Origin: Candidatus Spongiisociaceae bacterium
Lineage (GTDB): Bacteria > Actinomycetota > Acidimicrobiia > Spongiisociales > Spongiisociaceae
Assembly: GCA_965262915.1 (NCBI GenBank)
Contig: OZ253564.1
Location: 3,840,001 to 3,904,000 of the forward strand
Direction of reading: 5' to 3'
Length of the DNA: 64,000 nt
The notes below the pieces were generated by a model, which saw nothing but the letters and a program-made list of their open reading frames with translations, was not told where the DNA came from and made no database searches. A program made the translations under genes and the position numbers. Shown piece after piece: positions 9,529-56,397 of this stretch. Numbering within the stretch: the stretch's first letter is position 1; the number at the start of each line of letters is the position of its first letter.

Positions 9529-10317
9529 CTAGGGCGTGTTCACGTTTCTGAGCGTGTCGTGTATGAGCGCGAGGGTGATGAATGCTAGGAACATCACGTC
9601 GAGTTTGTCGTAGCGGGTGAAGACACGCCGGTAGCCTTTGAGCCGTCGGAAGAGCCGTTCGACCTCGTTCCGTCGCTTGTATATCGGACGGTTGTAGTCC
9701 CACGGGTGGCGGCGGTTGCTTCGGGGTGGGATGACCGGCGTGTAGCCCAGAGCGACGGCCAGTTGCCGTGTTTCGTCCCCTTCATAGGCGCGGTCCGCTA
9801 CCAGGAACAGCTCTAGCTGCTCCCCTTCCTGCTCCTTTTTTCGTGGGCCCATCTTTTTGAGGAGCTCCCGCCCATGGGGAGCATCATGGTCCTGACCTGG
9901 GGAAAGAGCGAATAAGACGGCGCTACAAGCGCTGGCCGCGACCATGTGGATCTTGGTGTTCAACCCTCCCCGGGAGCGACCGATGGCCTGGGGACCCCGC
10001 TTTCGGAGAGCACCACAGCCGTCGGGATGAACCTTGACCGACGTGCTGTCCAGGCCCAGAACTTCGAGGTCGATGAGCTGTTCCTGCTGTAGACGCTGGA
10101 ACACCCGGTCCAAGACGCCGCTGGCCGCCCAGCGGCTCATCCGCATGTAAACGGTGTGCCAGTTCCCGAACCGTTCGGGAAGCGCCCGCCATTTGCAGCC
10201 GTGCTCCAGTACGTACAGGATGCCGTTGAGGGCTTGGAGGTTGGATACCTTGACGGTACCGCGGGGTTTCGGGAACACGTCTACTATGAGTTGGTATTGT
10301 TCTTGTGTTATTGTCAT
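9529..10317 (-). CDS. IS5-family transposase
   Basis: GCKWRALPERFGNWHTVY, LDSTSVKVH, GRSRGGLNTKIH, ADRAY, YKRRNEVERLFRRLK. Confidence 0.95.
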   Translation of the reverse strand: MTITQEQYQLIVDVFPKPRGTVKVSNLQALNGILYVLEHGCKWRALPERFGNWHTVYMRMSRWAASGVLDRVFQRLQQEQLIDLEVLGLDSTSVKVHPDGCGALRKRGPQAIGRSRGGLNTKIHMVAASACSAVLFALSPGQDHDAPHGRELLKKMGPRKKEQEGEQLELFLVADRAYEGDETRQLAVALGYTPVIPPRSNRRHPWDYNRPIYKRRNEVERLFRRLKGYRRVFTRYDKLDVMFLAFITLALIHDTLRNVNTP

Positions 10318-24113: not shown

Positions 24114-24943
24114 GGGCGTGTTCACCTAAAGTTACACTGATGTGATATCATTACGATATGACAATAACACAAGAACAATACCAACTCATAGTAGACGTGT
24201 TCCCGAAACCCCGCGGTACCGTCAAGGTATCCAACCTCCAAGCCCTCAACGGCATCCTGTACGTACTGGAGCACGGCTGCAAGTGGCGGGCGCTTCCCGA
24301 ACGGTTCGGGAACTGGCACACCGTTTACATGCGGATGAGCCGCTGGGCGGCCAGCGGCGTCTTGGACCGGGTGTTCCAGCGTCTACAGCAGGAACAGCTC
24401 ATCGACCTCGAAGTTCTGGGCCTGGACAGCACGTCGGTCAAGGTTCATCCCGACGGCTGTGGTGCTCTCCGAAAGCGGGGTCCCCAGGCCATCGGTCGCT
24501 CCCGGGGAGGGTTGAACACCAAGATCCACATGGTCGCGGCCAGCGCTTGTAGCGCCGTCTTATTCGCTCTTTCCCCAGGTCAGGACCATGATGCTCCCCA
24601 TGGGCGGGAGCTCCTCAAAAAGATGGGCCCACGAAAAAAGGAGCAGGAAGGGGAGCAGCTAGAGCTGTTCCTGGTAGCGGACCGCGCCTATGAAGGGGAC
24701 GAAACACGGCAACTGGCCGTCGCTCTGGGCTACACGCCGGTCATCCCACCCCGAAGCAACCGCCGCCACCCGTGGGACTACAACCGTCCGATATACAAGC
24801 GACGGAACGAGGTCGAACGGCTCTTCCGACGGCTCAAAGGCTACCGGCGTGTCTTCACCCGCTACGACAAACTCGACGTGATGTTCCTAGCATTCATCAC
24901 CCTCGCGCTCATACACGACACGCTCAGAAACGTGAACACGCCC
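24114..24943 (+). mobile_element. IS5-family insertion sequence, copy 2 (830 bp)
   Basis: Same TIRs and TA duplication; inverted relative to copy 1; I saw one synonymous difference (TGC AAA vs TGC AAG). Confidence 0.92.
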
Positions 24944-24946
24944 TAG
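24158..24946 (+). CDS. IS5-family transposase
   Basis: Protein identical to 9529..10317. Confidence 0.95.
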   Translation: MTITQEQYQLIVDVFPKPRGTVKVSNLQALNGILYVLEHGCKWRALPERFGNWHTVYMRMSRWAASGVLDRVFQRLQQEQLIDLEVLGLDSTSVKVHPDGCGALRKRGPQAIGRSRGGLNTKIHMVAASACSAVLFALSPGQDHDAPHGRELLKKMGPRKKEQEGEQLELFLVADRAYEGDETRQLAVALGYTPVIPPRSNRRHPWDYNRPIYKRRNEVERLFRRLKGYRRVFTRYDKLDVMFLAFITLALIHDTLRNVNTP

Positions 24947-46890: not shown

Positions 46891-47252
46891 GCAGGCTCCG
46901 GAGGGAACGTGGTTCGGGTTGCCGAGACCCGAACCCGATGGTTGTGTGGGTGGGGTATCCGGCTCGGGCCGGACCGAACCGGTCGGGATGGTTCCGGTAC
47001 ATGGCTCGGGTTGGTTCAAGTCCTGCTCGACACCGAGCAGCAGACAGTTTGTGGGTCATCTGGGCAGCCGTTCGACTAGACCATCCGGAGGATAACCCTT
47101 CGCCGGCGAGCCGAGTGCCCGGTGGGCACCTTCCTTGGAACCATCAACCGGGTCTGGAGATCCATTGCGAACCACCTCGGCCCGCTTGTGCAGATCGCGA
47201 AACTCGCCGCGACCGACCGCGCGCCCACGGACGATTCGGGACGCGACTAGGC

Positions 47253-47588
47253 CTACAGCAGAGCGCGGACGGCTCCGCGCAGCCCGGCCAGAGCGAGGAA
47301 GAGGGCAGTCTGCTGGCCGCTCGCCGTCGTGTGGTCACGTATTTTGAGGCTGTGGGTGTATTCGGACAGGGCGAACCGGAGATACTGGACCTCACCCGAA
47401 ACAGGATCGGGCCATTCGGTGACCTCTTCCAGCGTCAAGCGTGCCTCTTCCAGGGCGGGAAGAGCCATGTCGAGCCCCACGCCAGGTGAGTCCCACCGGA
47501 GCTTGTAGACGCTCGCCTTGTAGATCTGAAGGTCGATGTCGGTCACGGCCGCCCACAGCAGCGCCTTGTATCCTTTGCCGATCGTCAT
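47253..47588 (-). CDS. Hypothetical helical protein (111 aa) directly downstream of UbiD 1
   Basis: GGGAGGG RBS before ATG 47588; 34 nt after the ubiD stop; no motif recognised. Confidence 0.55.
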   Translation of the reverse strand: MTIGKGYKALLWAAVTDIDLQIYKASVYKLRWDSPGVGLDMALPALEEARLTLEEVTEWPDPVSGEVQYLRFALSEYTHSLKIRDHTTASGQQTALFLALAGLRGAVRALL

Positions 47589-47622
47589 GCCAACCCTCCC
47601 GGTGTGATCGCGTTGCCCGCAG

Positions 47623-49029
47623 TCATGTTCCGTCCACGGACCGCCACTCGGTGAGGTAGTCCGAGAGATCCATATCCTCCCAGACATCCCTCGGGACATC
47701 CGCACGTTCCTCGAACGGAGCCTCGACCGGTTTCGTGGCGTCGATGGCCCACTTGGTGTTCATGGTGTCCTTCTCCCAGCGGCTCCAGATCGAGTACGAG
47801 GCAGGATCGAGCCGCGAGGTCGCGGACTCGGGAACGAAGAACGTGGAGCGATCCGGCTGGGTCCTGGTGGCGATGGCCCACAGAACCTCGGCGTCGTTGT
47901 GGATGTCGACATCCTCGTCGACGACAACCGCGAGCTTCACGAAGGGATCCGACGAGAGCGCCGCCAAGGCAGCGAGCTTGCCCGCTCCGTCGTACTCCTT
48001 GCATATCCGGACGTACGCGTGGAACCGGCATATACCGGACATCGGCATCGCCACGTCGATGACCGACGGGACGGCGGCCTTGACCCTCTTGTAGAGAACC
48101 GACTCCCTCCCGAGCCGCCCGGTGAGGTTGTGCTCCGGGTGCGCCGCGAAGAGATGGTGGAAGATCGCATCCTTGCGATGGGTGATGGCGGTCACCTCCA
48201 TCACGGGGCTCGGGCGCTCCAGCCCGTAGTACCAGGTGAACTCGCCGTAGGGACCCTCACCGATGCGCTCGTGGGGAAGGATCCGACCCTCTATCACCAC
48301 CTCGGCGTGGGCGGGAACCAGCACGTCCACCGTCTTGGCCATGGTGACCGCCAAAGGCTCTTTGAGCAGCCCGCCCATGACCTCGTACTCGTCCTCGCCG
48401 AAGGGGATCTTCGACTGGCAGCCCAGCAGGCAGGCCGGGTGATGACCGATCCAGGTCACCACCTCCAGCGGCTCGCCCCGTGCCTCGAAGGGCCGATGCA
48501 CCTGGCCGATGTGGGTGTGCTTCTCGTAGCTCATGCCCAGCGTATTGCGGGAGTGGACCATCATCCGGTAGATGCCGGAGTTGAAATTGTCGGTTCCGGG
48601 ATGCCGGACGGTGGTGATACCCGCGCTGATGAAGGGCCCGGAGTCCTTCCCGCAGTTGGTCACTATGGGGACCTCATGGAGGTTCACGTCCTCGGCCGGG
48701 ATGACAACGTCGTGGACCGGTCCCGTGTCGACCACCTCATAGGGAATGCGGGCGTCCTCCCGGTCGATATAAGCCTTCGTCATCTCGGTGGGCGTAGTCT
48801 CGAGCGCCTCGGCCAGCAAGGCGGCACTGCCCAAGACGTTGGAGATCGTTCGTAGCTTCGATCCCTCCACAGATTCGAAGAGCACCGCCGGGTAGCGGCC
48901 CTCCGACTGCAGTTTCCGCAGCACCCCGGGGAGTTCGAATAGCGGACTGACCGGCCGTGAGACACGAACCAACTCGGATGGAGCGTTCGTCTCGACACGC
49001 TTGAGGAAACTCCTCAGGTCCTTGGCCAC
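47623..49029 (-). CDS. UbiD-family (prFMN-dependent) decarboxylase 1
   Basis: DLRSFL, D.GPFISAG, NSGIYR, VPAHAEVVIEG, EGPYGEFTWYY, VVVDEDVDI; GTG with GGAGG RBS. Confidence 0.92.
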   Translation of the reverse strand: MAKDLRSFLKRVETNAPSELVRVSRPVSPLFELPGVLRKLQSEGRYPAVLFESVEGSKLRTISNVLGSAALLAEALETTPTEMTKAYIDREDARIPYEVVDTGPVHDVVIPAEDVNLHEVPIVTNCGKDSGPFISAGITTVRHPGTDNFNSGIYRMMVHSRNTLGMSYEKHTHIGQVHRPFEARGEPLEVVTWIGHHPACLLGCQSKIPFGEDEYEVMGGLLKEPLAVTMAKTVDVLVPAHAEVVIEGRILPHERIGEGPYGEFTWYYGLERPSPVMEVTAITHRKDAIFHHLFAAHPEHNLTGRLGRESVLYKRVKAAVPSVIDVAMPMSGICRFHAYVRICKEYDGAGKLAALAALSSDPFVKLAVVVDEDVDIHNDAEVLWAIATRTQPDRSTFFVPESATSRLDPASYSIWSRWEKDTMNTKWAIDATKPVEAPFEERADVPRDVWEDMDLSDYLTEWRSVDGT

Positions 49030-49308
49030 GAAACACTCCCTCCCTCGTATGCGGGTTGCCGGACGGATGCTAGCCCACGGAAGTCGGCCCCGTTGCGCGC
49101 CTCCGAACTCCTGCCGGAGCAGCACCGAACATCAATGATCCTCATTACCTACCTATCAATCGCCCTCCGACTGATCCGACAACAGGATGGCCCGAGACAA
49201 CCACCCGACCGCCTGCTACCCCGACATGGCGAGAATCACCCGGACAAGGCACCCGGCGAGGAGCCAATCCGTCAACGGAGACACCCGCGCGCGGCTGCCC
49301 GCTCTTGT

Positions 49309-49557
49309 GAGGGTCCCCGAATGGGTGCTCACCTTGGGGGAACAGAGCATGCGACGATTCATGAGTTGACATCGATTACCAGGTGTTTCCCGATCTGCGG
49401 CCGGATAGGGCTAACGACAGGAGCGATCGACCTCCGCCTATCGCCCGTGTAGTCATTTCGAGGCGGCTGCTGGTCGAGAAACCCCAGGTCATCGCGGGCG
49501 GCTCTTGAAATGTCGCAACCCGTGTCTCCCCAGGTGAGCACCTATCCGCTAGCCCTC
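49309..49557. repeat. Two head-to-head degenerate family A elements in the ubiD/idi divergent region
   Basis: GAGGGT...GGTGCTCACC.TGGGGGAACA at the left end and TCCCCAGGTGAGCACCTATCCGCTAGCCCTC-TAA at the right end. Confidence 0.6.
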
Positions 49558-49628
49558 TAAGATGCTTGATCACCGAACATCGCACCACGACATCTCGAGT
49601 CCTTCCGCCCATCGAGGGGAGCAAATAG

Positions 49629-50723
49629 GTGACCATCATCGAGAACCGCAAGCGCGAACACATCGAGCTGGCGCTCTCGGAAGGTTCTCAGAGTCGTTGC
49701 TCCGCACTCTGGGAGGATGTTCGCCTCGTACCCGAGTCCGTACCGGATATCGGCCCGACCGACGTGGATCTCTCCGTCGAGTTCCTCGGCCATCGGCTGT
49801 CCACCCCGCTCGTGATCAGCGGGATGACGGGAGGACACGCGCGAGCGCTCGAGATCAACCGGAATCTGGCGGTGGCAGCCGAGGAGTTGGGGCTCGCGAT
49901 CGGGGTCGGCAGCCAGCGGGCTGCCTTGGCGAACCCGAACCTTATCGACACCTACTCGGTCATACGCACTCGGGCTCGCGGAGCGTTTGTCATCGGCAAC
50001 ATCGGCATGAGCCAACTGGTAGGCCAGAACGGCGATCCGCCGCTGGGCAGGGCAGAGATCGAACAGGCGGTGTCCATGATCGATGCCGACGCACTAGCCG
50101 TCCATCTGAATGCGGTCGAAGAACTCATACAGCCTGAAGGCGACCGGAACATGAGAGGGCTAACCGCCGGGATCGGCAACGCCGTGCGGTGGTCACCCGT
50201 TCCTGTCATCGGCAAGGAAACGGGTGCCGGCATGGCGAGAGAGTCGGCCACCAAGCTTGCCGCAACGGGTGTGGCAGCCCTCGATGTCGGAGGCGCAGGA
50301 GGTACGAGCTTCGCCCGGATCGAGGCCCTCCGTGCGCAGGCGGTGGACGACACGACCGGTGTAAGGATCGGACGGACCTTCGCCGACTGGGGGCTTCCCA
50401 CCGTGCTTTCGCTCCTCGAGGCGGGATCGGCGGGACTGCCGTTGATCGGTACGGGCGGGGTACGCAACGGACTCCATGCCGCCAAGGCCATGGCCCTGGG
50501 TGCATCTCTCGTCGGAATGGGCGGCCCCTTCATTCGAGCTGCGCTCACGGGCCCCGAAGCTGTCATCGCAGAGGGGCGGCTGGTGCTCGAAGAACTCAGA
50601 GTGGCGATGGTCCTGACGGGTGCGAGGGACATCGCTTCGCTTCGTGGGATGCAACCCGTGCTGGTGGGGAGGGTGGCGGAATGGCTCGCCTCGAGGCGCA
50701 GGACCGGCTCATCAGGATCATGA
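49629..50723 (+). CDS. fni: Type 2 isopentenyl-diphosphate delta-isomerase (IDI-2)
   Basis: RKREHI, SGMTGG, GVGSQR, GNIG, HLN...E..QPEGD, KETGAG, GAGGTSF, WGLPT, GGVRNG. Confidence 0.88.
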   Translation: MTIIENRKREHIELALSEGSQSRCSALWEDVRLVPESVPDIGPTDVDLSVEFLGHRLSTPLVISGMTGGHARALEINRNLAVAAEELGLAIGVGSQRAALANPNLIDTYSVIRTRARGAFVIGNIGMSQLVGQNGDPPLGRAEIEQAVSMIDADALAVHLNAVEELIQPEGDRNMRGLTAGIGNAVRWSPVPVIGKETGAGMARESATKLAATGVAALDVGGAGGTSFARIEALRAQAVDDTTGVRIGRTFADWGLPTVLSLLEAGSAGLPLIGTGGVRNGLHAAKAMALGASLVGMGGPFIRAALTGPEAVIAEGRLVLEELRVAMVLTGARDIASLRGMQPVLVGRVAEWLASRRRTGSSGS

Positions 50724-50747
50724 CCGAGGGGAAACGAGGGAGGCCGG

Positions 50748-51221
50748 ATGTCACGGATTGAAGACAGCGAGCTCAGCCCCGACCTGATGGATCTGCTCGA
50801 CGGAACCGACCTTGACAGCAAAGTGGGCGAGACCGTTCTCCTCCTGACCGTCAGCGAGACCGGCTGGCCCCACCTTGCCATGCTGAGCGTCGGCGAGTTG
50901 CTCGCTGTGCAGCCCGACGAGGTGCGGATCGCTCTGTGGTCCGGCACCCGAACCGGCAACAACCTGCGCCGCACCTCCAAGGGAACTCTGGCCCTCGTAC
51001 ACGGCGGCGCCGGCCACTACATCGAACTGCAGGTAACCGATGCGGGAACTCTCGAAGTCGGCAGCAAGGCCCTGGACTCCTTCTCCTGCAGCGTGACGAA
51101 GGTCCTCTCCGACGTCGTGGGCTACGCGAAGCTGACCACCGGCATCCGTTTCGAGCTTCCCCGACGGGAAGCTGTGGTACCTCGTTGGGAACGCACCGTG
51201 GCGGCAATGCGGACCGCCTGA
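50748..51221 (+). CDS. Pyridoxamine 5'-phosphate oxidase-like split-barrel flavin-binding protein
   Basis: LLTVSETGWPHLAMLSVGE...ALW.GTRT..NLRR; GGAGG RBS. Confidence 0.75.
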   Translation: MSRIEDSELSPDLMDLLDGTDLDSKVGETVLLLTVSETGWPHLAMLSVGELLAVQPDEVRIALWSGTRTGNNLRRTSKGTLALVHGGAGHYIELQVTDAGTLEVGSKALDSFSCSVTKVLSDVVGYAKLTTGIRFELPRREAVVPRWERTVAAMRTA

Positions 51222-51442
51222 CGATTGACCTTCCCACCCGCCCGTGAGGTAGAAACAGAAAGAGGGCCGGCCCCGGACGCCGCACTTCGATACCTCCTCT
51301 TGCCGGTGGTCGGAGTTCGTCGGGGCTGGTCGACGACGTGTACAACATCGGACCCATCTATCCGTCGGACAGCCCACGCTCAATCCGGACAGATCGCGAA
51401 AACCGCCGCGCTAGTCCTCGACCTCAGGCCCACAGCCCCGGC

Positions 51443-52222
51443 CTACTCCCGGAGTCCGGCCCGAATCTCGTTGACCAGACGGAAGAAGCGGTCGTCTTCG
51501 CGCGTCCGCTCATCCCTCGGATGCGGCAGATCGATGTGTCTGTCGAGAACTATCTTGCCGGGCCTCGGACTCATCACCAGGACGCGGTTGGAGAGGAACA
51601 CGGCCTCGGGAATCGAATGCGTGATGAAGAGGATTGTGGTGTGGGTGGTTTCCCAGATCCGTTGCAGTTCGGCATTCATACGTTCTCTCGTGATCTCGTC
51701 CAGAGCACCGAAGGGCTCGTCCATCAGCAAGATGTCGGGGTTGAACGAGAGGGCACGGGCGATCGACACCCGCTGCTGCATACCACCCGAGAGCTGCCAG
51801 GGGCTCTTGCGAGCAAAGTCGTCGAGGGCGACCAACTCCAGCATCTCCGTAGCGCGGCGACGACGCTCGGCCCGGCTGAGGCTCATCACCTCCAGGGGAA
51901 GCTCGACGTTTCGTCGAACCGAACGCCATGCATACAGCACGGGGTTCTGGAAGACCACGCCGATGGCCCGGCTCTGCCTGGCTTCCCGAGCGCTCTGGCC
52001 TGCCACCCTGATCGACCCGGACGACGGAGGCAACAGGTCGGCTATCAGTCTGAGCATGGTCGACTTGCCACATCCCGAAGGTCCGACGATCGAGACGAAC
52101 TCGTTCTGCCCGACTGAGAACGAGATGTCCTCCACCGCGACGACAGCATCGTAGGTTTTACCGAAGCGCTTGGTGACATCGCGCACCTCTATGGCGTGAG
52201 CAACATTGTCAACTGTGGCCAT
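51443..52222 (-). CDS. NitT/TauT-type ABC transporter ATP-binding protein
   Basis: GPSGCGKST, LSGGMQQR, LMDEPFGALD, THSIPEAVFLS.RV.VMSPRPG. Confidence 0.9.
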   Translation of the reverse strand: MATVDNVAHAIEVRDVTKRFGKTYDAVVAVEDISFSVGQNEFVSIVGPSGCGKSTMLRLIADLLPPSSGSIRVAGQSAREARQSRAIGVVFQNPVLYAWRSVRRNVELPLEVMSLSRAERRRRATEMLELVALDDFARKSPWQLSGGMQQRVSIARALSFNPDILLMDEPFGALDEITRERMNAELQRIWETTHTTILFITHSIPEAVFLSNRVLVMSPRPGKIVLDRHIDLPHPRDERTREDDRFFRLVNEIRAGLRE

Positions 52223-52376
52223 CAGCCCATCCTCCGGCTATGCCCGGCTTCTCGACCGAGGTGGTTGCCGGCCACCTCGCAACCCGGATCGGTAACAATG
52301 TAGCCGCGGTCCGCTCCCCGGTCGTGTCGCCTCATCTGGAAGCTGCTGCGGTAGCCACGCCGGCGCCATTGCGATC

Positions 52377-52481
52377 TAGGAGGGTGGTGCGAAACCCCTT
52401 CACGGCCCGTCGACCGATGACATAGTGTCTGTTCAGAGGAAGACGGGCCCTTGCTCCCCACCGTTTTAGACCACCCTCCTA
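52377..52481. repeat. MITE-like element, family B, copy 1 (105 bp)
   Basis: TAGGAGGGTGGT ... ACCACCCTCCTA; internal GGCCCGTC/GACGGGCC stem. Confidence 0.7.
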
Positions 52482-52493
52482 AGCGCGGCACCT

Positions 52494-53861
52494 TCACCGC
52501 ATTCCCAACCACTGCGACCAATCCGGGACCTGGTCGACACCTGGGATCTCCACCACCTCGGCGAACTCTGCGCCATACGGAATCGTCGCATCGATGCCCA
52601 TCAGCGACGACCCGAACTTGCTCGGCGCGGAGGGGTCGAGCTGGCCTCCGGCCGCGCGCGGGATGATGATCACGTCTTCCGCAGGCTGAGCACGCGTGAG
52701 CACCGCCCACCAGACCTTGGCGGTGTCATAGATATCGATGTCGTCGTCCACCACTATCACCACCTTCGGATGTGCAACGCTTCCCAGGGCTGCCAGCAGC
52801 ACGTTCTTCGCCTGGTTCACGTACCGCTGCTTCATACCGATGACCGCCAGGAACTCCGCCCCGCCCTCCGGCGCGTAGCGGACCCCGGTGATATCGGGAT
52901 ATACCTGCCTCATGGCCTTCAGCAGGTTGGCTTCCATCGGAAGCAGCTTGAGGACGTGGTTCTCCGTTACCGGGATGCCGGTCAGCCCGGCCTGGTAGAT
53001 GGGGTCGATGCGGGAGGTGATCGCGGTGCACGTGAACACCGGCTCGGGCCCTCCGGGCCCTACGTAGCCGGTCATCTCCCCGAACGGTCCTTCTTCACGC
53101 CGAACGTGAGGTTCGAGGTATCCCTCGATGACCAACTCGGACGTAGCCGGCACCTCCAAGTCTATTGTCCGGCATTTTACGAGCTCGACGGGCGATCCGT
53201 GCAGCCCTCCCGCTATGGCAAGCTCGTCAACACCGAAGGGCACCCGGGCCTGCGTCGCCAGTTGGATTACCGGGTCCACACCGATGGCCACGGCTACCTC
53301 CAGGCGCTGTCCGAGCTCTTCGGCGTGGGTACGGATTGCATCGAAGTCCGAGTATGGGCTGACGGCCAACCCCATTTCGGTGGGACCGTAGAGCTGCATC
53401 CGGTAGATGCCGGCATTCCGCTCGCCGCTGATCGGGTCTCTGGCTATCTCGACCCCCACTGTGATGAACGGGCCGGGGTCCTGTTTCGAGTACGTGGGGA
53501 TGGGAAGGGTGGTGAGATCGACGTCATCGCCGGTGATGACGATCTCCTGGCACGGCCCGTCGTCCACGAGCACCGGCGGGATGGGATTGTCCAGGCCGTT
53601 GATGAACACCTCGAGCGCGTCGCCCGGTCCGGCCGCCCGTAGCGCATGCTCGGCCTTGGACGGTGAGCAGAAGACGCCTGCCGCCACCCTCATCTCGCTC
53701 CCCTTTGCTTCATCGAAGAGGAAGGCCGGCCCCAGCATGTCGGAGCTCTTCCGTATGTACGCCGCTACCTCGTAGAGAGGGTCGACAGGTCCCGGGATAT
53801 GGGCAAGCTCGCCCTTGTCGGACAGGTAGCTCAGAAACCCGCGCAGATCCTTGTGCAGCAT
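52494..53861 (-). CDS. UbiD-family (prFMN-dependent) decarboxylase 2
   Basis: DLRGFL, DPGPFIT.G, NAGIYR, VPATSELVIEG, EGPFGEMTGY, VVDDDIDI, LDPS, GIDAT. Confidence 0.93.
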   Translation of the reverse strand: MLHKDLRGFLSYLSDKGELAHIPGPVDPLYEVAAYIRKSSDMLGPAFLFDEAKGSEMRVAAGVFCSPSKAEHALRAAGPGDALEVFINGLDNPIPPVLVDDGPCQEIVITGDDVDLTTLPIPTYSKQDPGPFITVGVEIARDPISGERNAGIYRMQLYGPTEMGLAVSPYSDFDAIRTHAEELGQRLEVAVAIGVDPVIQLATQARVPFGVDELAIAGGLHGSPVELVKCRTIDLEVPATSELVIEGYLEPHVRREEGPFGEMTGYVGPGGPEPVFTCTAITSRIDPIYQAGLTGIPVTENHVLKLLPMEANLLKAMRQVYPDITGVRYAPEGGAEFLAVIGMKQRYVNQAKNVLLAALGSVAHPKVVIVVDDDIDIYDTAKVWWAVLTRAQPAEDVIIIPRAAGGQLDPSAPSKFGSSLMGIDATIPYGAEFAEVVEIPGVDQVPDWSQWLGMR

Positions 53862-53871
53862 GATTCTCTCC

Positions 53872-53976
53872 TAGGAGGGTGGTCAAGACCTCCGGTTGGC
53901 CCGGCGGTCGATGAGAAAATACCTGGTCAGTGGACGACGGGCCAACCATCTACCGGTTTTTTTGAGCACCCTCCTA
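53872..53976. repeat. MITE-like element, family B, copy 2 (105 bp)
   Basis: TAGGAGGGTGGTCAA ... TTGAGCACCCTCCTA; internal TTGGCCCG/CGGGCCAA stem. Confidence 0.7.
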
Positions 53977-56397
53977 TTGTCGAAGTCGATCGGCCGGCGA
54001 ACCCGTCGCCGTAGCGGCCCGAATGGCTTCCCAGACTCTTGAGGGCGTCATCGGGATCTCGTTGATGCGAGCGTCATAGTCGCGGAGCGCGTCCTCGACG
54101 GCGCTGACCACCGAGCTCAGCGCGCATCCGAGCCCGGACTCCCCCGCACCCTTCGTACCCAGCGGCGTGAATGGTGACGGGTAGACCTGGTGGGCGACCT
54201 CTACGCGTGGCATCTCGACCGCGGTCGGGATCGTGTAGTCCATGAGGGTGGCGGTCTGGATCTGGCCGGACTCGTCGTATCTGATCTCCTCGTACAGGGC
54301 ACCGCCCAGCGCCTGGGCGGTCGCCCCGTGCAGGTTCGCATCGACGAGCAACGGGTTAACGATGTTCCCCGCGTCCTCGACCAGGTAGTAGTCGAGCACC
54401 TCGACCATGCCCGTCTCCGGATCCACAGCCACGACGCACGCAGCCGCAGCGCTCGGCCAGGTCGGGTAGGCGTTGAACCGTCCCTGGGTGGCCGGCTGGT
54501 GGTAGATGTTCTCGGCCCGGTAGTAACGGGTCACCTCCAGCCCGGGCTCGACGTTCTCGGTGGCCGGGCCGTAGGGCCGCCTGTACATCTCGTCCGCGAC
54601 ATCCGAGATACGGACCGAACGCTGCTGAGCACCGATCACGCTGATGCGGCCGTCCGAAGCTTCCAGATCCTCCGGCGAAACCTCCAGCATGTTGGCGGCC
54701 ACCTTCATGAGCCGGGCCTTCAGCTCGGCCGCAGCCTTGCCGACCGCCGACCCCCCGATGATCACGCCTCGCGAGCTGTAGTTCCCGAGACCCCAGGGAC
54801 AGATGACGGTGTCCCCCTGCACAACTCGCACGTCGTCGAACCGGCAGCCCAGACTGTCGGCCGCGATCTGTGCCAGGGCCGTCTCGTTCCCGTTGCCCGG
54901 AGAGGTGACGCCGCTCAACACGGTGACCTCCCCGGTAGGACCTACCCGCACGGTCGCTCCGTCGTACGCGGATATCATCACCGAGCCCGGCATGGCGCAT
55001 CCCTCGGGTGTGAGTTCATAGCCGATCCCGATGCCGATATGGCGGCCCCGCTCGCGCTCGCCCCGGCGGCGCTCCTCGAACCCTTCGTAGTTGACCAACT
55101 CCATCGCGGCCCGCAGGGTTGCGTGGTAGTCACCGCTCCCTATGATGCCGCCCCCCTCCCGAGCGAAGGGGAACTCCTCGGACCGCAGGAAGTTACGCAT
55201 CCGTACCTCTCCTCGGTCGAGGCCGGTTGCTCGCGCCACTTCATCCATCACCCGTTCGAGCCAGAGATTGGCGATGTCCTTGCCGAAGCCTCGGTAGGAG
55301 TTCCAGGGCGTCTTGTTGGTGACGACCGTGGTCAACCGGACGCGGGTGTTGGGAATGCGGTACGGGCCGGGAATGAGGCCGCTGGCGGCGAAGGTCATGC
55401 CCCATCCGACCAGGCTGGTCGGAGCACCCACGTCGGCGAGGATCCGAACATCGATACCGGTTACCACACCTTGGTCGTCATAACCGGCCTTGACCCTGGC
55501 CGTCATCTCGCGAGCGTGACCTATGGATGCGAAGTTCTCGTCGCGCGACTCGATCCACTTGATGGTCCGGCGAAGCTTGAAGGCCAGGTAGGCGATGAGC
55601 GGCTCTTCTTGGAAGGTCGGCTGTTTGAGCCCGAACGCTCCACCCACCTGCGGCTGTATCACCCTGATACGGGATTCCCGGATGCCCAGAGTCTGGGCAA
55701 GATAGACGCGTAGGGGATGCGGGTTCTGGGTGGAGTCCCAAAGCGTGAGGGTCTCCCGTTTGCGATCGAAGGAAGCGAGCAAGCCCCGCGGCTCGATGGG
55801 AACACCCGTTCCACGATTGCTCGTGACCTCGGTTTCGACGATTCCCTTCGCTTCGGCGAACGCATCGGCAACGTCGCCCACCTTGAGGTCGCGTCTCACC
55901 AGGACGTTGGTGCCCCAGTCGGGCTCGACAAGCGCCGCACCCGGTTCGAGAGCAGCCCCCACATCGGCGACGGCCGTGAGAGGCTCGTAGTCCACATCGA
56001 TGTGACCGAGAGCAAGATTCGCAGCGTGCTTCGTCTCCGCGACGACCGCCGCCACCGCCTCGCCGACGTAGCGAGCCCGATCAACGCACAACGCGTACCA
56101 CCGGACCTGGTGGGCGCCGATGGCAGCCGTGTCCCAACCCTGAGGTATCGGGTTGGTGTGAGCCGCGATCTCGGCGCCGGTGACAACGGCCACAACGCCG
56201 GGGAGTGCCTCAGCACGCGACGTGTCGATAGAGCAGATCAGGGCATGGGCGTGCGGGCTGCGGAGGACCGCCATGAAGTTCATGACGCCGGGAGGCCGGA
56301 CATCGTCCACGTAGATGCCCCGGCCTGCGACCAGAGTCCTGTTGGTGCGACCCGGGTAGCGCTTCCCTACGTGGGTGTCGGCAGCAGGAGAACTCAT
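53974..56397 (-). CDS. Xanthine dehydrogenase family Mo-binding large subunit (L2)
   Basis: VGGAFGLK, SYRGFGK, GNGNET, SSR, KGAGES. Confidence 0.9.
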   Translation of the reverse strand: MSSPAADTHVGKRYPGRTNRTLVAGRGIYVDDVRPPGVMNFMAVLRSPHAHALICSIDTSRAEALPGVVAVVTGAEIAAHTNPIPQGWDTAAIGAHQVRWYALCVDRARYVGEAVAAVVAETKHAANLALGHIDVDYEPLTAVADVGAALEPGAALVEPDWGTNVLVRRDLKVGDVADAFAEAKGIVETEVTSNRGTGVPIEPRGLLASFDRKRETLTLWDSTQNPHPLRVYLAQTLGIRESRIRVIQPQVGGAFGLKQPTFQEEPLIAYLAFKLRRTIKWIESRDENFASIGHAREMTARVKAGYDDQGVVTGIDVRILADVGAPTSLVGWGMTFAASGLIPGPYRIPNTRVRLTTVVTNKTPWNSYRGFGKDIANLWLERVMDEVARATGLDRGEVRMRNFLRSEEFPFAREGGGIIGSGDYHATLRAAMELVNYEGFEERRRGERERGRHIGIGIGYELTPEGCAMPGSVMISAYDGATVRVGPTGEVTVLSGVTSPGNGNETALAQIAADSLGCRFDDVRVVQGDTVICPWGLGNYSSRGVIIGGSAVGKAAAELKARLMKVAANMLEVSPEDLEASDGRISVIGAQQRSVRISDVADEMYRRPYGPATENVEPGLEVTRYYRAENIYHQPATQGRFNAYPTWPSAAAACVVAVDPETGMVEVLDYYLVEDAGNIVNPLLVDANLHGATAQALGGALYEEIRYDESGQIQTATLMDYTIPTAVEMPRVEVAHQVYPSPFTPLGTKGAGESGLGCALSSVVSAVEDALRDYDARINEIPMTPSRVWEAIRAATATGSPADRLRQ

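Follow-up and report, generated by a model that had tools for sequence, protein, structure and literature searches.

The locus examined here raises the question of why a gene for an isoprenoid enzyme should be found among genes for decarboxylases. In a 64-kb stretch of the genome of a Candidatus Spongiisociaceae bacterium (G000:C1:3840001-3904000, hereafter the window), two genes for UbiD-family (de)carboxylases, UbiD1 and UbiD2, flank a pair of genes that encode a homolog of the type-2 isopentenyl diphosphate isomerase (IDI-2) and a flavoprotein of 157 amino acid residues. The genome is a single contig of 5.06 Mb, with a completeness of 96.4% and a contamination of 5.9%. UbiD decarboxylases are widespread and need the cofactor prenylated flavin mononucleotide (prFMN). 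Their reversible (de)carboxylation is exploited in biocatalysis, and when UbiDs are produced recombinantly, their loading with active prFMN is often poor. To our knowledge, the source of the prenyl donor for the flavin prenyltransferase UbiX in bacteria is still unclear. Our results suggest that the IDI-2 homolog and the small flavoprotein, which resembles the prFMN maturase PhdC, probably form an accessory module for the prFMN cofactor that serves the five UbiDs of this genome, three of which are encoded in this island. PhdC and its role have already been published (PMC13040415). A full-text literature search, with subscription papers outside its scope, found no paper describing a link of IDI-2 to UbiX, UbiD or prFMN, and judged from the sequences the pair appears to be a hitherto undescribed accessory to the UbiX/UbiD system.

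Listing of open reading frames (ORFs) and family scans confirmed that all four genes, which had been recognized in a sequence-only reading of the window, are real and are positioned as reported there, with UbiD1 on the minus strand divergent from IDI-2 and the subsequent 157-residue gene. UbiD2 had been placed about 1.3 kb further on. The gap is indeed 1.27 kb, but it holds a gene for an ATP-binding cassette (ABC) transporter ATPase that had gone unmentioned. Position 47253, with which the reported locus starts, belongs to a separate small ORF (47253-47588). The 157-residue gene starts 24 nt past the stop codon of IDI-2 and has a GGGAGG ribosome-binding site ahead of it; thus, by position, the two genes form one transcription unit. 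The ORFs that run antisense to IDI-2 and the 157-residue gene (49952-50980 and 50751-51383) and a plus-strand ORF at 51225-52154 matched no family and were rejected in favor of the genes with family matches. That other genomes show the arrangement again makes it more than a chance one.

In the Pfam scan, the 157-residue protein gave a sub-threshold match to PNPOx_N alone (E 0.0042). Its sole significant sequence matches in the PDB, found with phmmer, were 9SRG/9SRJ and 9NK0-4/9O5M, with E-values from 4.9e-7 to 2.9e-6. The entries 9SRG and 9SRJ are PhdC of Mycolicibacterium fortuitum, a prFMN oxidative maturase (PMC13040415). A profile search gave an E-value of 2.1e-8; the matched region is confined to residues 7-98. 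The AlphaFold2 model of the protein, computed from a 27-member alignment, had a pLDDT (predicted local distance difference test) of 94 and consisted of a barrel of strands and a helix at residues 140-156, which is the split-barrel fold with a C-terminal helix found in 9SRG and 9NK0. When the model was compared with the PDB by Foldseek, the nine best matches were all PhdC, with template modeling (TM) scores of 0.70–0.76 and identities of 26–27% over ~154 columns. Moreover, Glu47 in the active site of PhdC aligns to Glu50 of the 157-residue protein, which is invariant in 27/27 family members. By sequence and predicted fold, the protein is a PhdC homolog. This resemblance had been suspected in the sequence-only reading, together with a PNPOx-like (split-barrel) fold of PhdC; the former is borne out by the phmmer and Foldseek results, and the latter agrees with PMC13040415.

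A word-indexed search for the PhdC-like family returned 92 clusters, mainly metagenomic, and a scan in which each GTDB species was represented by a single genome yielded 21 PhdC-like loci, whose neighboring genes were called by tblastn with the window proteins (E ≤1e-8, at least half of the query) and by Pfam. The loci were from Acidimicrobiia, other Actinomycetota (including Nocardioides endophyticus and a Thermoleophilaceae metagenome-assembled genome, MAG), Chloroflexota, Dormibacterota, a Terriglobales MAG and a MAG labeled Bacillota. UbiD was found in 17 of the 21 loci. UbiX was in the fetched flank of 12, and in 10 it directly adjoined the PhdC-like gene; it was missing from nine loci, namely the six of close relatives (L008-L013), L020, and two contigs of 4–4.6 kb. 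In 10 of the 21, IDI-2 was no more than 10 kb away from the PhdC-like gene, a count that includes a truncated copy in L023, and six of these 10 loci also had UbiX in the flank. In L026 and L027, the genes stand in the row IDI-2, PhdC-like, UbiX, with ORF ends that overlap or abut in L026. An apparent fusion of IDI-2 and the PhdC-like protein in L023 was rejected, because a stop codon (L023:946-948) separates the two ORFs. Among 401 evenly sampled Chloroflexota genomes, 22 carried the PhdC-like family (the unpublished G453 included), and UbiX was found in 20 of these 22 versus 112 of the 401 (28%) overall. The BLAST survey described in PMC13040415 found PhdC-like sequences in Actinomycetota only. 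Given that the 21 loci reach beyond this phylum, the family identified here is a wider and more distant branch than the one in that survey, and the PhdC family is thereby widened well past Actinomycetota.

These results also bear on whether the 157-residue protein could be a generic split-barrel flavin reductase or flavin-binding protein that has no specific role in prFMN maturation. Such a protein would be expected from the weak match to PNPOx_N only, from the many split-barrel FMN proteins that rank after PhdC in the Foldseek search and from the C-terminal ExW motif of PhdC, which was not recognized in the family. However, PhdC accounts for the nine best structural matches and the sole significant PDB sequence matches, the UbiX gene is adjacent in 10/21 loci, and UbiX is present in 20/22 of the Chloroflexota genomes with the family versus 28% overall. 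We consider a generic flavoprotein very unlikely.

The sequence-only reading had reported no UbiX. This holds within the 64-kb window, but the genome has exactly one, on the minus strand at G000:C1:3920530-3921075 (TIGR00421, 242 bits; cut-off, 108.9), 16.5 kb beyond the end of the window and ~30 kb from IDI-2. The genome also has five UbiD genes, of which three are within 20 kb of one another here (the third, at genome positions 3905533-3907041, is outside the window), one is ~44 kb past the end of the window and one is distant. The PhdC-like gene is present in one copy. The gene of the third UbiD (L007:1533-3041, minus strand) is followed by an unrelated ORF of 145 residues without Pfam family (L007:1085-1522, minus strand), the two together occupying genome positions 3905085-3907041, and its neighborhood contains a CoxG-like gene and a DUF6282 gene.

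Comparison with the closest relatives showed that IDI-2 and UbiX come and go together. Seven close relatives share UbiD1, the PhdC-like gene, the ABC ATPase and UbiD2 at 75–95% protein identity. In the window's own genome G000 and in G817, G815 and G816, IDI-2 separates UbiD1 from the PhdC-like gene, and UbiX is present in each of these four genomes. In G406, G407 and G408 (loci L010, L011 and L013), a 190-bp spacer replaces IDI-2, and genome-wide searches found neither IDI-2 nor, even at E 0.001, UbiX; G406 and G408 are single-chromosome assemblies. As IDI-2 and UbiX are ~24–31 kb apart where they are present, their joint absence is not the result of one small deletion. Both the linkage of IDI-2 with prFMN genes across several phyla and its loss along with UbiX fit a role in supplying the prenyl donor, and the tie between IDI-2 and prFMN supply that the sequence-only reading had drawn is supported by them.

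The same findings run counter to a bolder proposal, in which the IDI-2 homolog itself prenylates FMN and so replaces UbiX. Although the 64-kb window is devoid of UbiX and IDI-2 holds reduced FMN beside dimethylallyl diphosphate (DMAPP) (PMC3509576), one UbiX is encoded 16.5 kb beyond the window, ~30 kb from IDI-2, UbiX is in the flank of 6/10 loci with IDI-2 near the PhdC-like gene, and IDI-2 and UbiX even stand in the same gene row in L026 and L027. Moreover, the relatives without UbiX are also without IDI-2, which is the reverse of what would be expected of a substitute. Thus, the co-occurrence of IDI-2 and UbiX contradicts the replacement of one by the other, and we regard this proposal as extremely improbable.

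Whether IDI-2 might simply be a general isoprenoid isomerase that is in the island by chance was assessed from the genome-wide inventory and from the surroundings of other IDI-2 genes. Genome-wide, one gene scored over the TIGR02151 cut-off (366.9 bits); it is the sole IDI of the genome, in which no IDI-1 was found. The genome contains IspH and uses the methylerythritol phosphate (MEP) route, and therefore an IDI is not required for its basic isoprenoid synthesis. No Pfam family of prenyl synthases or of the mevalonate or MEP pathways was found among the scanned ORFs of the window, which were picked by length and by G+C content at third codon positions in a scan that was not exhaustive; this accords with the earlier view that the 64 kb contain no such gene. 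As points for a general isomerase, the gene is the only IDI of the genome, it is an equivalog-level member of its family, and many Chloroflexota typically have, as their one IDI-2, a Gln-type gene from this subclade. On the other hand, it is repeatedly a neighbor of PhdC-like and UbiX genes, namely in Acidimicrobiia, other Actinomycetota, Dormibacterota, a Terriglobales MAG and Chloroflexota, and the close relatives lose IDI-2 precisely and along with UbiX. In addition, no UbiX, UbiD or PhdC-like gene was found in the flanks (up to 9.5 kb) of 33 sampled IDI-2 genes of Actinomycetota, nor any prFMN gene near 56 Chloroflexota IDI-2 genes that lack the Glu variant described below, i.e., 0/89 sampled non-Glu genes were near UbiX, UbiD or PhdC-like genes. 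A general isomerase placed here by chance is unlikely. The sequence-only reading had itself named two findings that together would refute its idea of a prFMN supply module, an IDI-2 that is the only IDI of the genome and an adjacency that is not conserved: the gene is indeed the only IDI, but the adjacency is conserved.

The IDI-2 of the window aligns over its full length with those of S. shibatae (2ZRU), B. subtilis (1P0K) and T. thermophilus (1VCF), with E-values from 2.4e-65 (2ZRU) to 1.1e-49. The R-K-x-x-H and GSQR motifs and His155, Asn157 and Glu161 (S. shibatae numbering, counted from the alignment) are all retained. In window numbering, R7, K8, H11, S95, H159, N161 and E165 are conserved in 41 or more of the 43 sequences that were aligned, all Glu-variant ones included. 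Gln160, however, is not kept, as the window sequence reads HLNAVEE, with Glu164, versus HLNPAQE in 2ZRU, HLNVIQE in 1P0K and HVNPLQE in 1VCF. A single base change suffices for this replacement. Mutating the substrate-facing Gln of IDI-2 lowers activity. The residue, as "Gln161," is listed among those next to the substrate (PMC3509576).

The residue at this position was compared among several sets of IDI-2 genes. Of the IDI-2 genes no more than 10 kb away from a PhdC-like gene, all 10 that could be typed had Glu (the window, L008, L009, L012, L015, L017, L018, L022, L026, and L027). In the Actinomycetota sample, which comprised 33 IDI-2 genes fetched from 35 IDI-2-bearing genomes of a 401-genome sample with the window's own genome and the unpublished G268 left out, the residue was Gln in 33/33. 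The 150 nearest representatives at 50% identity had Gln (134), His (8), Met (5) or Glu (3), and the Chloroflexota sample, 60 fetched of ~73 high-scoring IDI-2 genes, had Gln (53), Leu (3) or Glu (4). A second candidate signature of the linked genes, KETGAG instead of KEVG[FWH]G, was rejected, since 56 unlinked Gln- or Leu-type genes of Chloroflexota also have KETGAG. A genome-wide search of 15 other genomes with a PhdC-like gene identified the Glu-variant IDI-2 in 10, no IDI-2 in three and Gln-type IDI-2 only in two; five of the 10 Glu-variant genomes also hold a canonical IDI-2 elsewhere, with the motifs HLNPLQE and KEVGWG. In a FastTree phylogeny of 193 sequences, which was unrooted apart from the midpoint, had moderate supports, and for which L023 was dropped and L018 trimmed before alignment, the Glu group of the window was sister to Gln-bearing sequences (support 0.92, inside a node of 0.94), and the other Glu sequences were in a separate subclade with Gln forms interspersed (0.95 and 0.81). 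As the Glu forms are found in at least two subclades, the Gln-to-Glu change seems to have occurred more than once. As a separate observation, an NMT1/THI5-like gene and a Glu-variant IDI-2 gene form a conserved pair in two Chloroflexota MAGs, in whose flanks prFMN genes were not found.

Fusions of IDI-2 were also identified among the representatives (P0099, P0150, P0217, P0246, P0225, and P0114), with partners that included an amino-acid-kinase-type domain of the isopentenyl phosphate kinase family, UbiA, polyprenyl synthase, DXS and a CTP-dependent riboflavin kinase. Fusions to isoprenoid domains in close relatives suggest that this IDI-2 clade acts on isoprenoid precursors, and together with the intact diphosphate site they favor isopentenyl diphosphate (IPP) and DMAPP as the probable substrates of the IDI-2 of the window.

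The association of Glu with linkage raises the possibility that the variant has an altered job in prFMN biosynthesis instead of that of a plain IPP/DMAPP isomerase. Candidate jobs would be the conversion of isopentenyl phosphate to dimethylallyl monophosphate (DMAP), the transfer of reduced FMN to UbiX, or action on a flavin-prenyl intermediate alongside UbiX. In line with this, Glu is found in 10/10 typable linked genes and in 0/33 Actinomycetota genes, 3/150 representatives and 4/60 Chloroflexota genes, the Glu forms are in at least two subclades split by Gln forms (0.92–0.95), which suggests repeated change, five genomes retain a canonical IDI-2 too, and IDI-2 is lost with UbiX. However, the residues that hold the diphosphate (R7, K8, H11, GSQR, H159, N161, and E165) are all kept, which argues against a monophosphate substrate. 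In other family members the position is occupied by His, Met or Leu and thus is not strictly essential, and two Glu-variant genes are in an unrelated context with FabD and NMT1-like genes. An altered job of this kind is possible but doubtful. We give an equally tentative standing to its stronger form, in which the Glu variant would be a dedicated, mechanistically altered prFMN enzyme that works obligately with UbiX, e.g., by making DMAP from isopentenyl phosphate or by acting on a flavin-prenyl species. If it were so, the relatives with UbiD and the PhdC-like gene and without UbiX and IDI-2 would scavenge the prFMN of their neighbors and re-activate it via the PhdC-like maturase.

For the reading that we prefer, a module of prenyl-donor supply and cofactor maturation, the data show to which families the proteins belong, how the genes are arranged, that this arrangement is conserved and that it co-occurs with UbiX; all enzymatic steps are inferred. 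The IDI-2 homolog would interconvert IPP and DMAPP and thereby provide the dimethylallyl donor for the single UbiX ~30 kb away. UbiX would then form prFMNH2. Finally, the PhdC-like protein would oxidize prFMN, in its radical or reduced state, to the active iminium form and hand it to the UbiDs.

Several points weigh against this module. First, bacterial UbiX prefers the monophosphate DMAP, which is not a product of an IPP/DMAPP isomerase. As prFMN is a cofactor, little DMAPP is required for it, and an isomerase devoted to this purpose seems more than is needed where IspH already gives DMAPP. Second, Glu in 10/10 linked genes versus Gln160 in the three solved IDI-2 structures implies that the enzyme may not be an ordinary isomerase. 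Third, the linkage is not universal. Of the four Glu genes in the unbiased Chloroflexota sample, only the one in L093 was near UbiX and UbiD (UbiD 2.6 kb and UbiX 6.4 kb away), two of six Chloroflexota genomes with the Glu variant had no UbiX (these are MAGs, completeness not known), and at L077:1919-4214 and L110:9464-12025 a Glu-variant gene stands behind a gene for an NMT1/THI5-like binding protein, beside FabD. Fourth, the three genomes without IDI-2 and UbiX may be one lineage, so that the co-loss may represent as few as one or two events. Last, the ExW motif at the C-terminus of PhdC (Glu136 and Trp138) was not recognized in the 157-residue family, for which the sequence alignment to PhdC ends at residue 98; in this region of the 27 members, Trp147 is invariant, position 145 is variable and position 141 is acidic in 21/27. 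On this last point, YclD, a distant PhdC homolog, is reported to have both of the Glu residues and to lack the Trp, yet to be capable of activating a UbiD (PMC13040415), showing that the ExW motif can vary.

The locus was further compared with known systems. In the phdABC operon of M. fortuitum, PhdA is a UbiD, PhdB a UbiX and PhdC the prFMN maturase (PMC13040415). PhdC is a dimer whose active site lies at the interface, and it converts the prFMN radical to the iminium form by oxidation. Similar to phdABC, a small split-barrel flavoprotein is encoded here with UbiD and UbiX genes, and it has the same fold as PhdC at 26–27% identity, with Glu47 kept. Different from phdABC, UbiX is ~30 kb away and not in an operon, the ExW motif of M. 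fortuitum PhdC was not recognized in the window family, and the partner in the two-gene unit is IDI-2, none being part of the phd operon as described in PMC13040415. YclD of Priestia megaterium, the distant PhdC-like activator mentioned above, is described as acting on E. coli UbiD (PMC13040415) and may be comparable to the window protein. Similar to the canonical IDI-2 of 2ZRU, 1P0K and 1VCF, the IDI-2 of the window is homologous over its full length and has the same residues at the FMN and diphosphate sites; different from them, it has Glu for Gln160, and its gene is coupled to UbiX, PhdC-like and UbiD genes rather than to isoprenoid genes.

Hmf clusters for furan degradation contain HmfF (a UbiD) and HmfG (a UbiX) beside the molybdenum hydroxylase HmfABC. 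The closest solved relative of both UbiD1 (E 1.6e-79) and UbiD2 (E 2.2e-93) is PDB 6H6V, which bears a generic name only in its PDB record and which we take to be HmfF of P. thermopropionicum, a furandicarboxylate decarboxylase. Similar to the hmf clusters, UbiD1 and UbiD2 are nearest to 6H6V and lie amid molybdenum hydroxylase genes, of which there are four sets; different from them, several UbiD paralogs are present, as are the accessory IDI-2 and PhdC-like genes, which are not known as members of the hmf cluster. The recurrent set of an IDI-2 paralog, a PhdC-type maturase, UbiX and UbiD points to an in vivo route of cofactor supply and activation, and the IDI-2/PhdC-like set offers helper genes for UbiD expression. 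Furthermore, complete genomes with UbiD and without UbiX raise the question of prFMN cross-feeding; one idea is that the UbiDs of G406, G407 and G408 use scavenged prFMN that is re-activated by the PhdC-like protein.

Features of the locus between positions 47253 and 53861 of the window
Feature	Position	Strand	Basis and remarks
Small conserved ORF	47253..47588	-	111 residues counted from an internal ATG; just downstream of UbiD1
UbiD1, UbiD-family (de)carboxylase	47623..49125	-	Pfam UbiD_N, UbiD, UbiD_C; TIGR00148 330 bits, cut-off 245 (244.85)
Intergenic spacer of 503 bp separating UbiD1 from the divergent IDI-2/PhdC-like unit	49126..49628	.	Coordinates of the flanking genes
IDI-2 homolog, Glu variant (Glu164)	49629..50723	+	TIGR02151 equivalog, 367 bits, cut-off 281.3
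PhdC-like split-barrel flavoprotein, 157 residues, candidate prFMN oxidative maturase	50748..51221	+	Match to PDB 9SRG/9SRJ; fold of the model
NitT/TauT-type ABC transporter ATPase	51443..52222	-	Pfam ABC_tran, E 5.7e-34; NCBIfam taurine/nitrate-type ATPase models; downstream of UbiD2
UbiD2, UbiD-family (de)carboxylase	52494..53861	-	Pfam UbiD_N, UbiD, UbiD_C; TIGR00148 369 bits, cut-off 245 (244.85)

The surroundings of UbiD1 and UbiD2 are a catabolic island. The four sets of molybdenum hydroxylase genes are of the xanthine-dehydrogenase type, and the setting also contains genes for EamA and ABC transporters, hydantoinase/oxoprolinase genes and amidohydrolases. The spacer between UbiD1 and IDI-2 is presumed to be a shared control region, as inferred from its position between divergent genes; no Rfam family was found in the window, and neither a sigma-70 promoter nor a terminator consensus in positions 47000-54200. 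By tblastn, the 111-residue ORF was found at 76–86% identity in L008-L013, six loci of related MAGs, where it has the equivalent position. It matched no Pfam or NCBIfam family, and the ESM Atlas gave no usable lead; it could be an accessory subunit of UbiD. The ABC ATPase is also kept in the same place in L008-L013, at 86–92% identity (tblastn).

This ATPase gene (51443-52222, minus strand) has no adjoining permease or binding protein gene. A gene set for an NMT1-type binding protein and two permeases, which lacks an ATPase, is found ~27 kb away (L007:12343-15106, plus strand), just upstream of an amidohydrolase and UbiX. A NitT/TauT-type transporter recurs next to UbiD in L014, L018, L019, and L027. 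Elsewhere in the window, two genes for IS4/5-family transposases (9529-10317, minus strand, and 24158-24946, plus strand) have identical Pfam scores and inverted orientation; the ~14 kb between them contain HNH, Schlafen/AlbA_2 and YgjP-like genes and are possibly a composite mobile or defense region. Finally, in an Actinomycetes MAG, a pair of genes resembling a cyclic-oligonucleotide-based antiphage signaling system (CBASS), for a SMODS nucleotidyltransferase and a bacterial HORMA protein (L015:12094-13192), is found a few kb from the PhdC-like gene.

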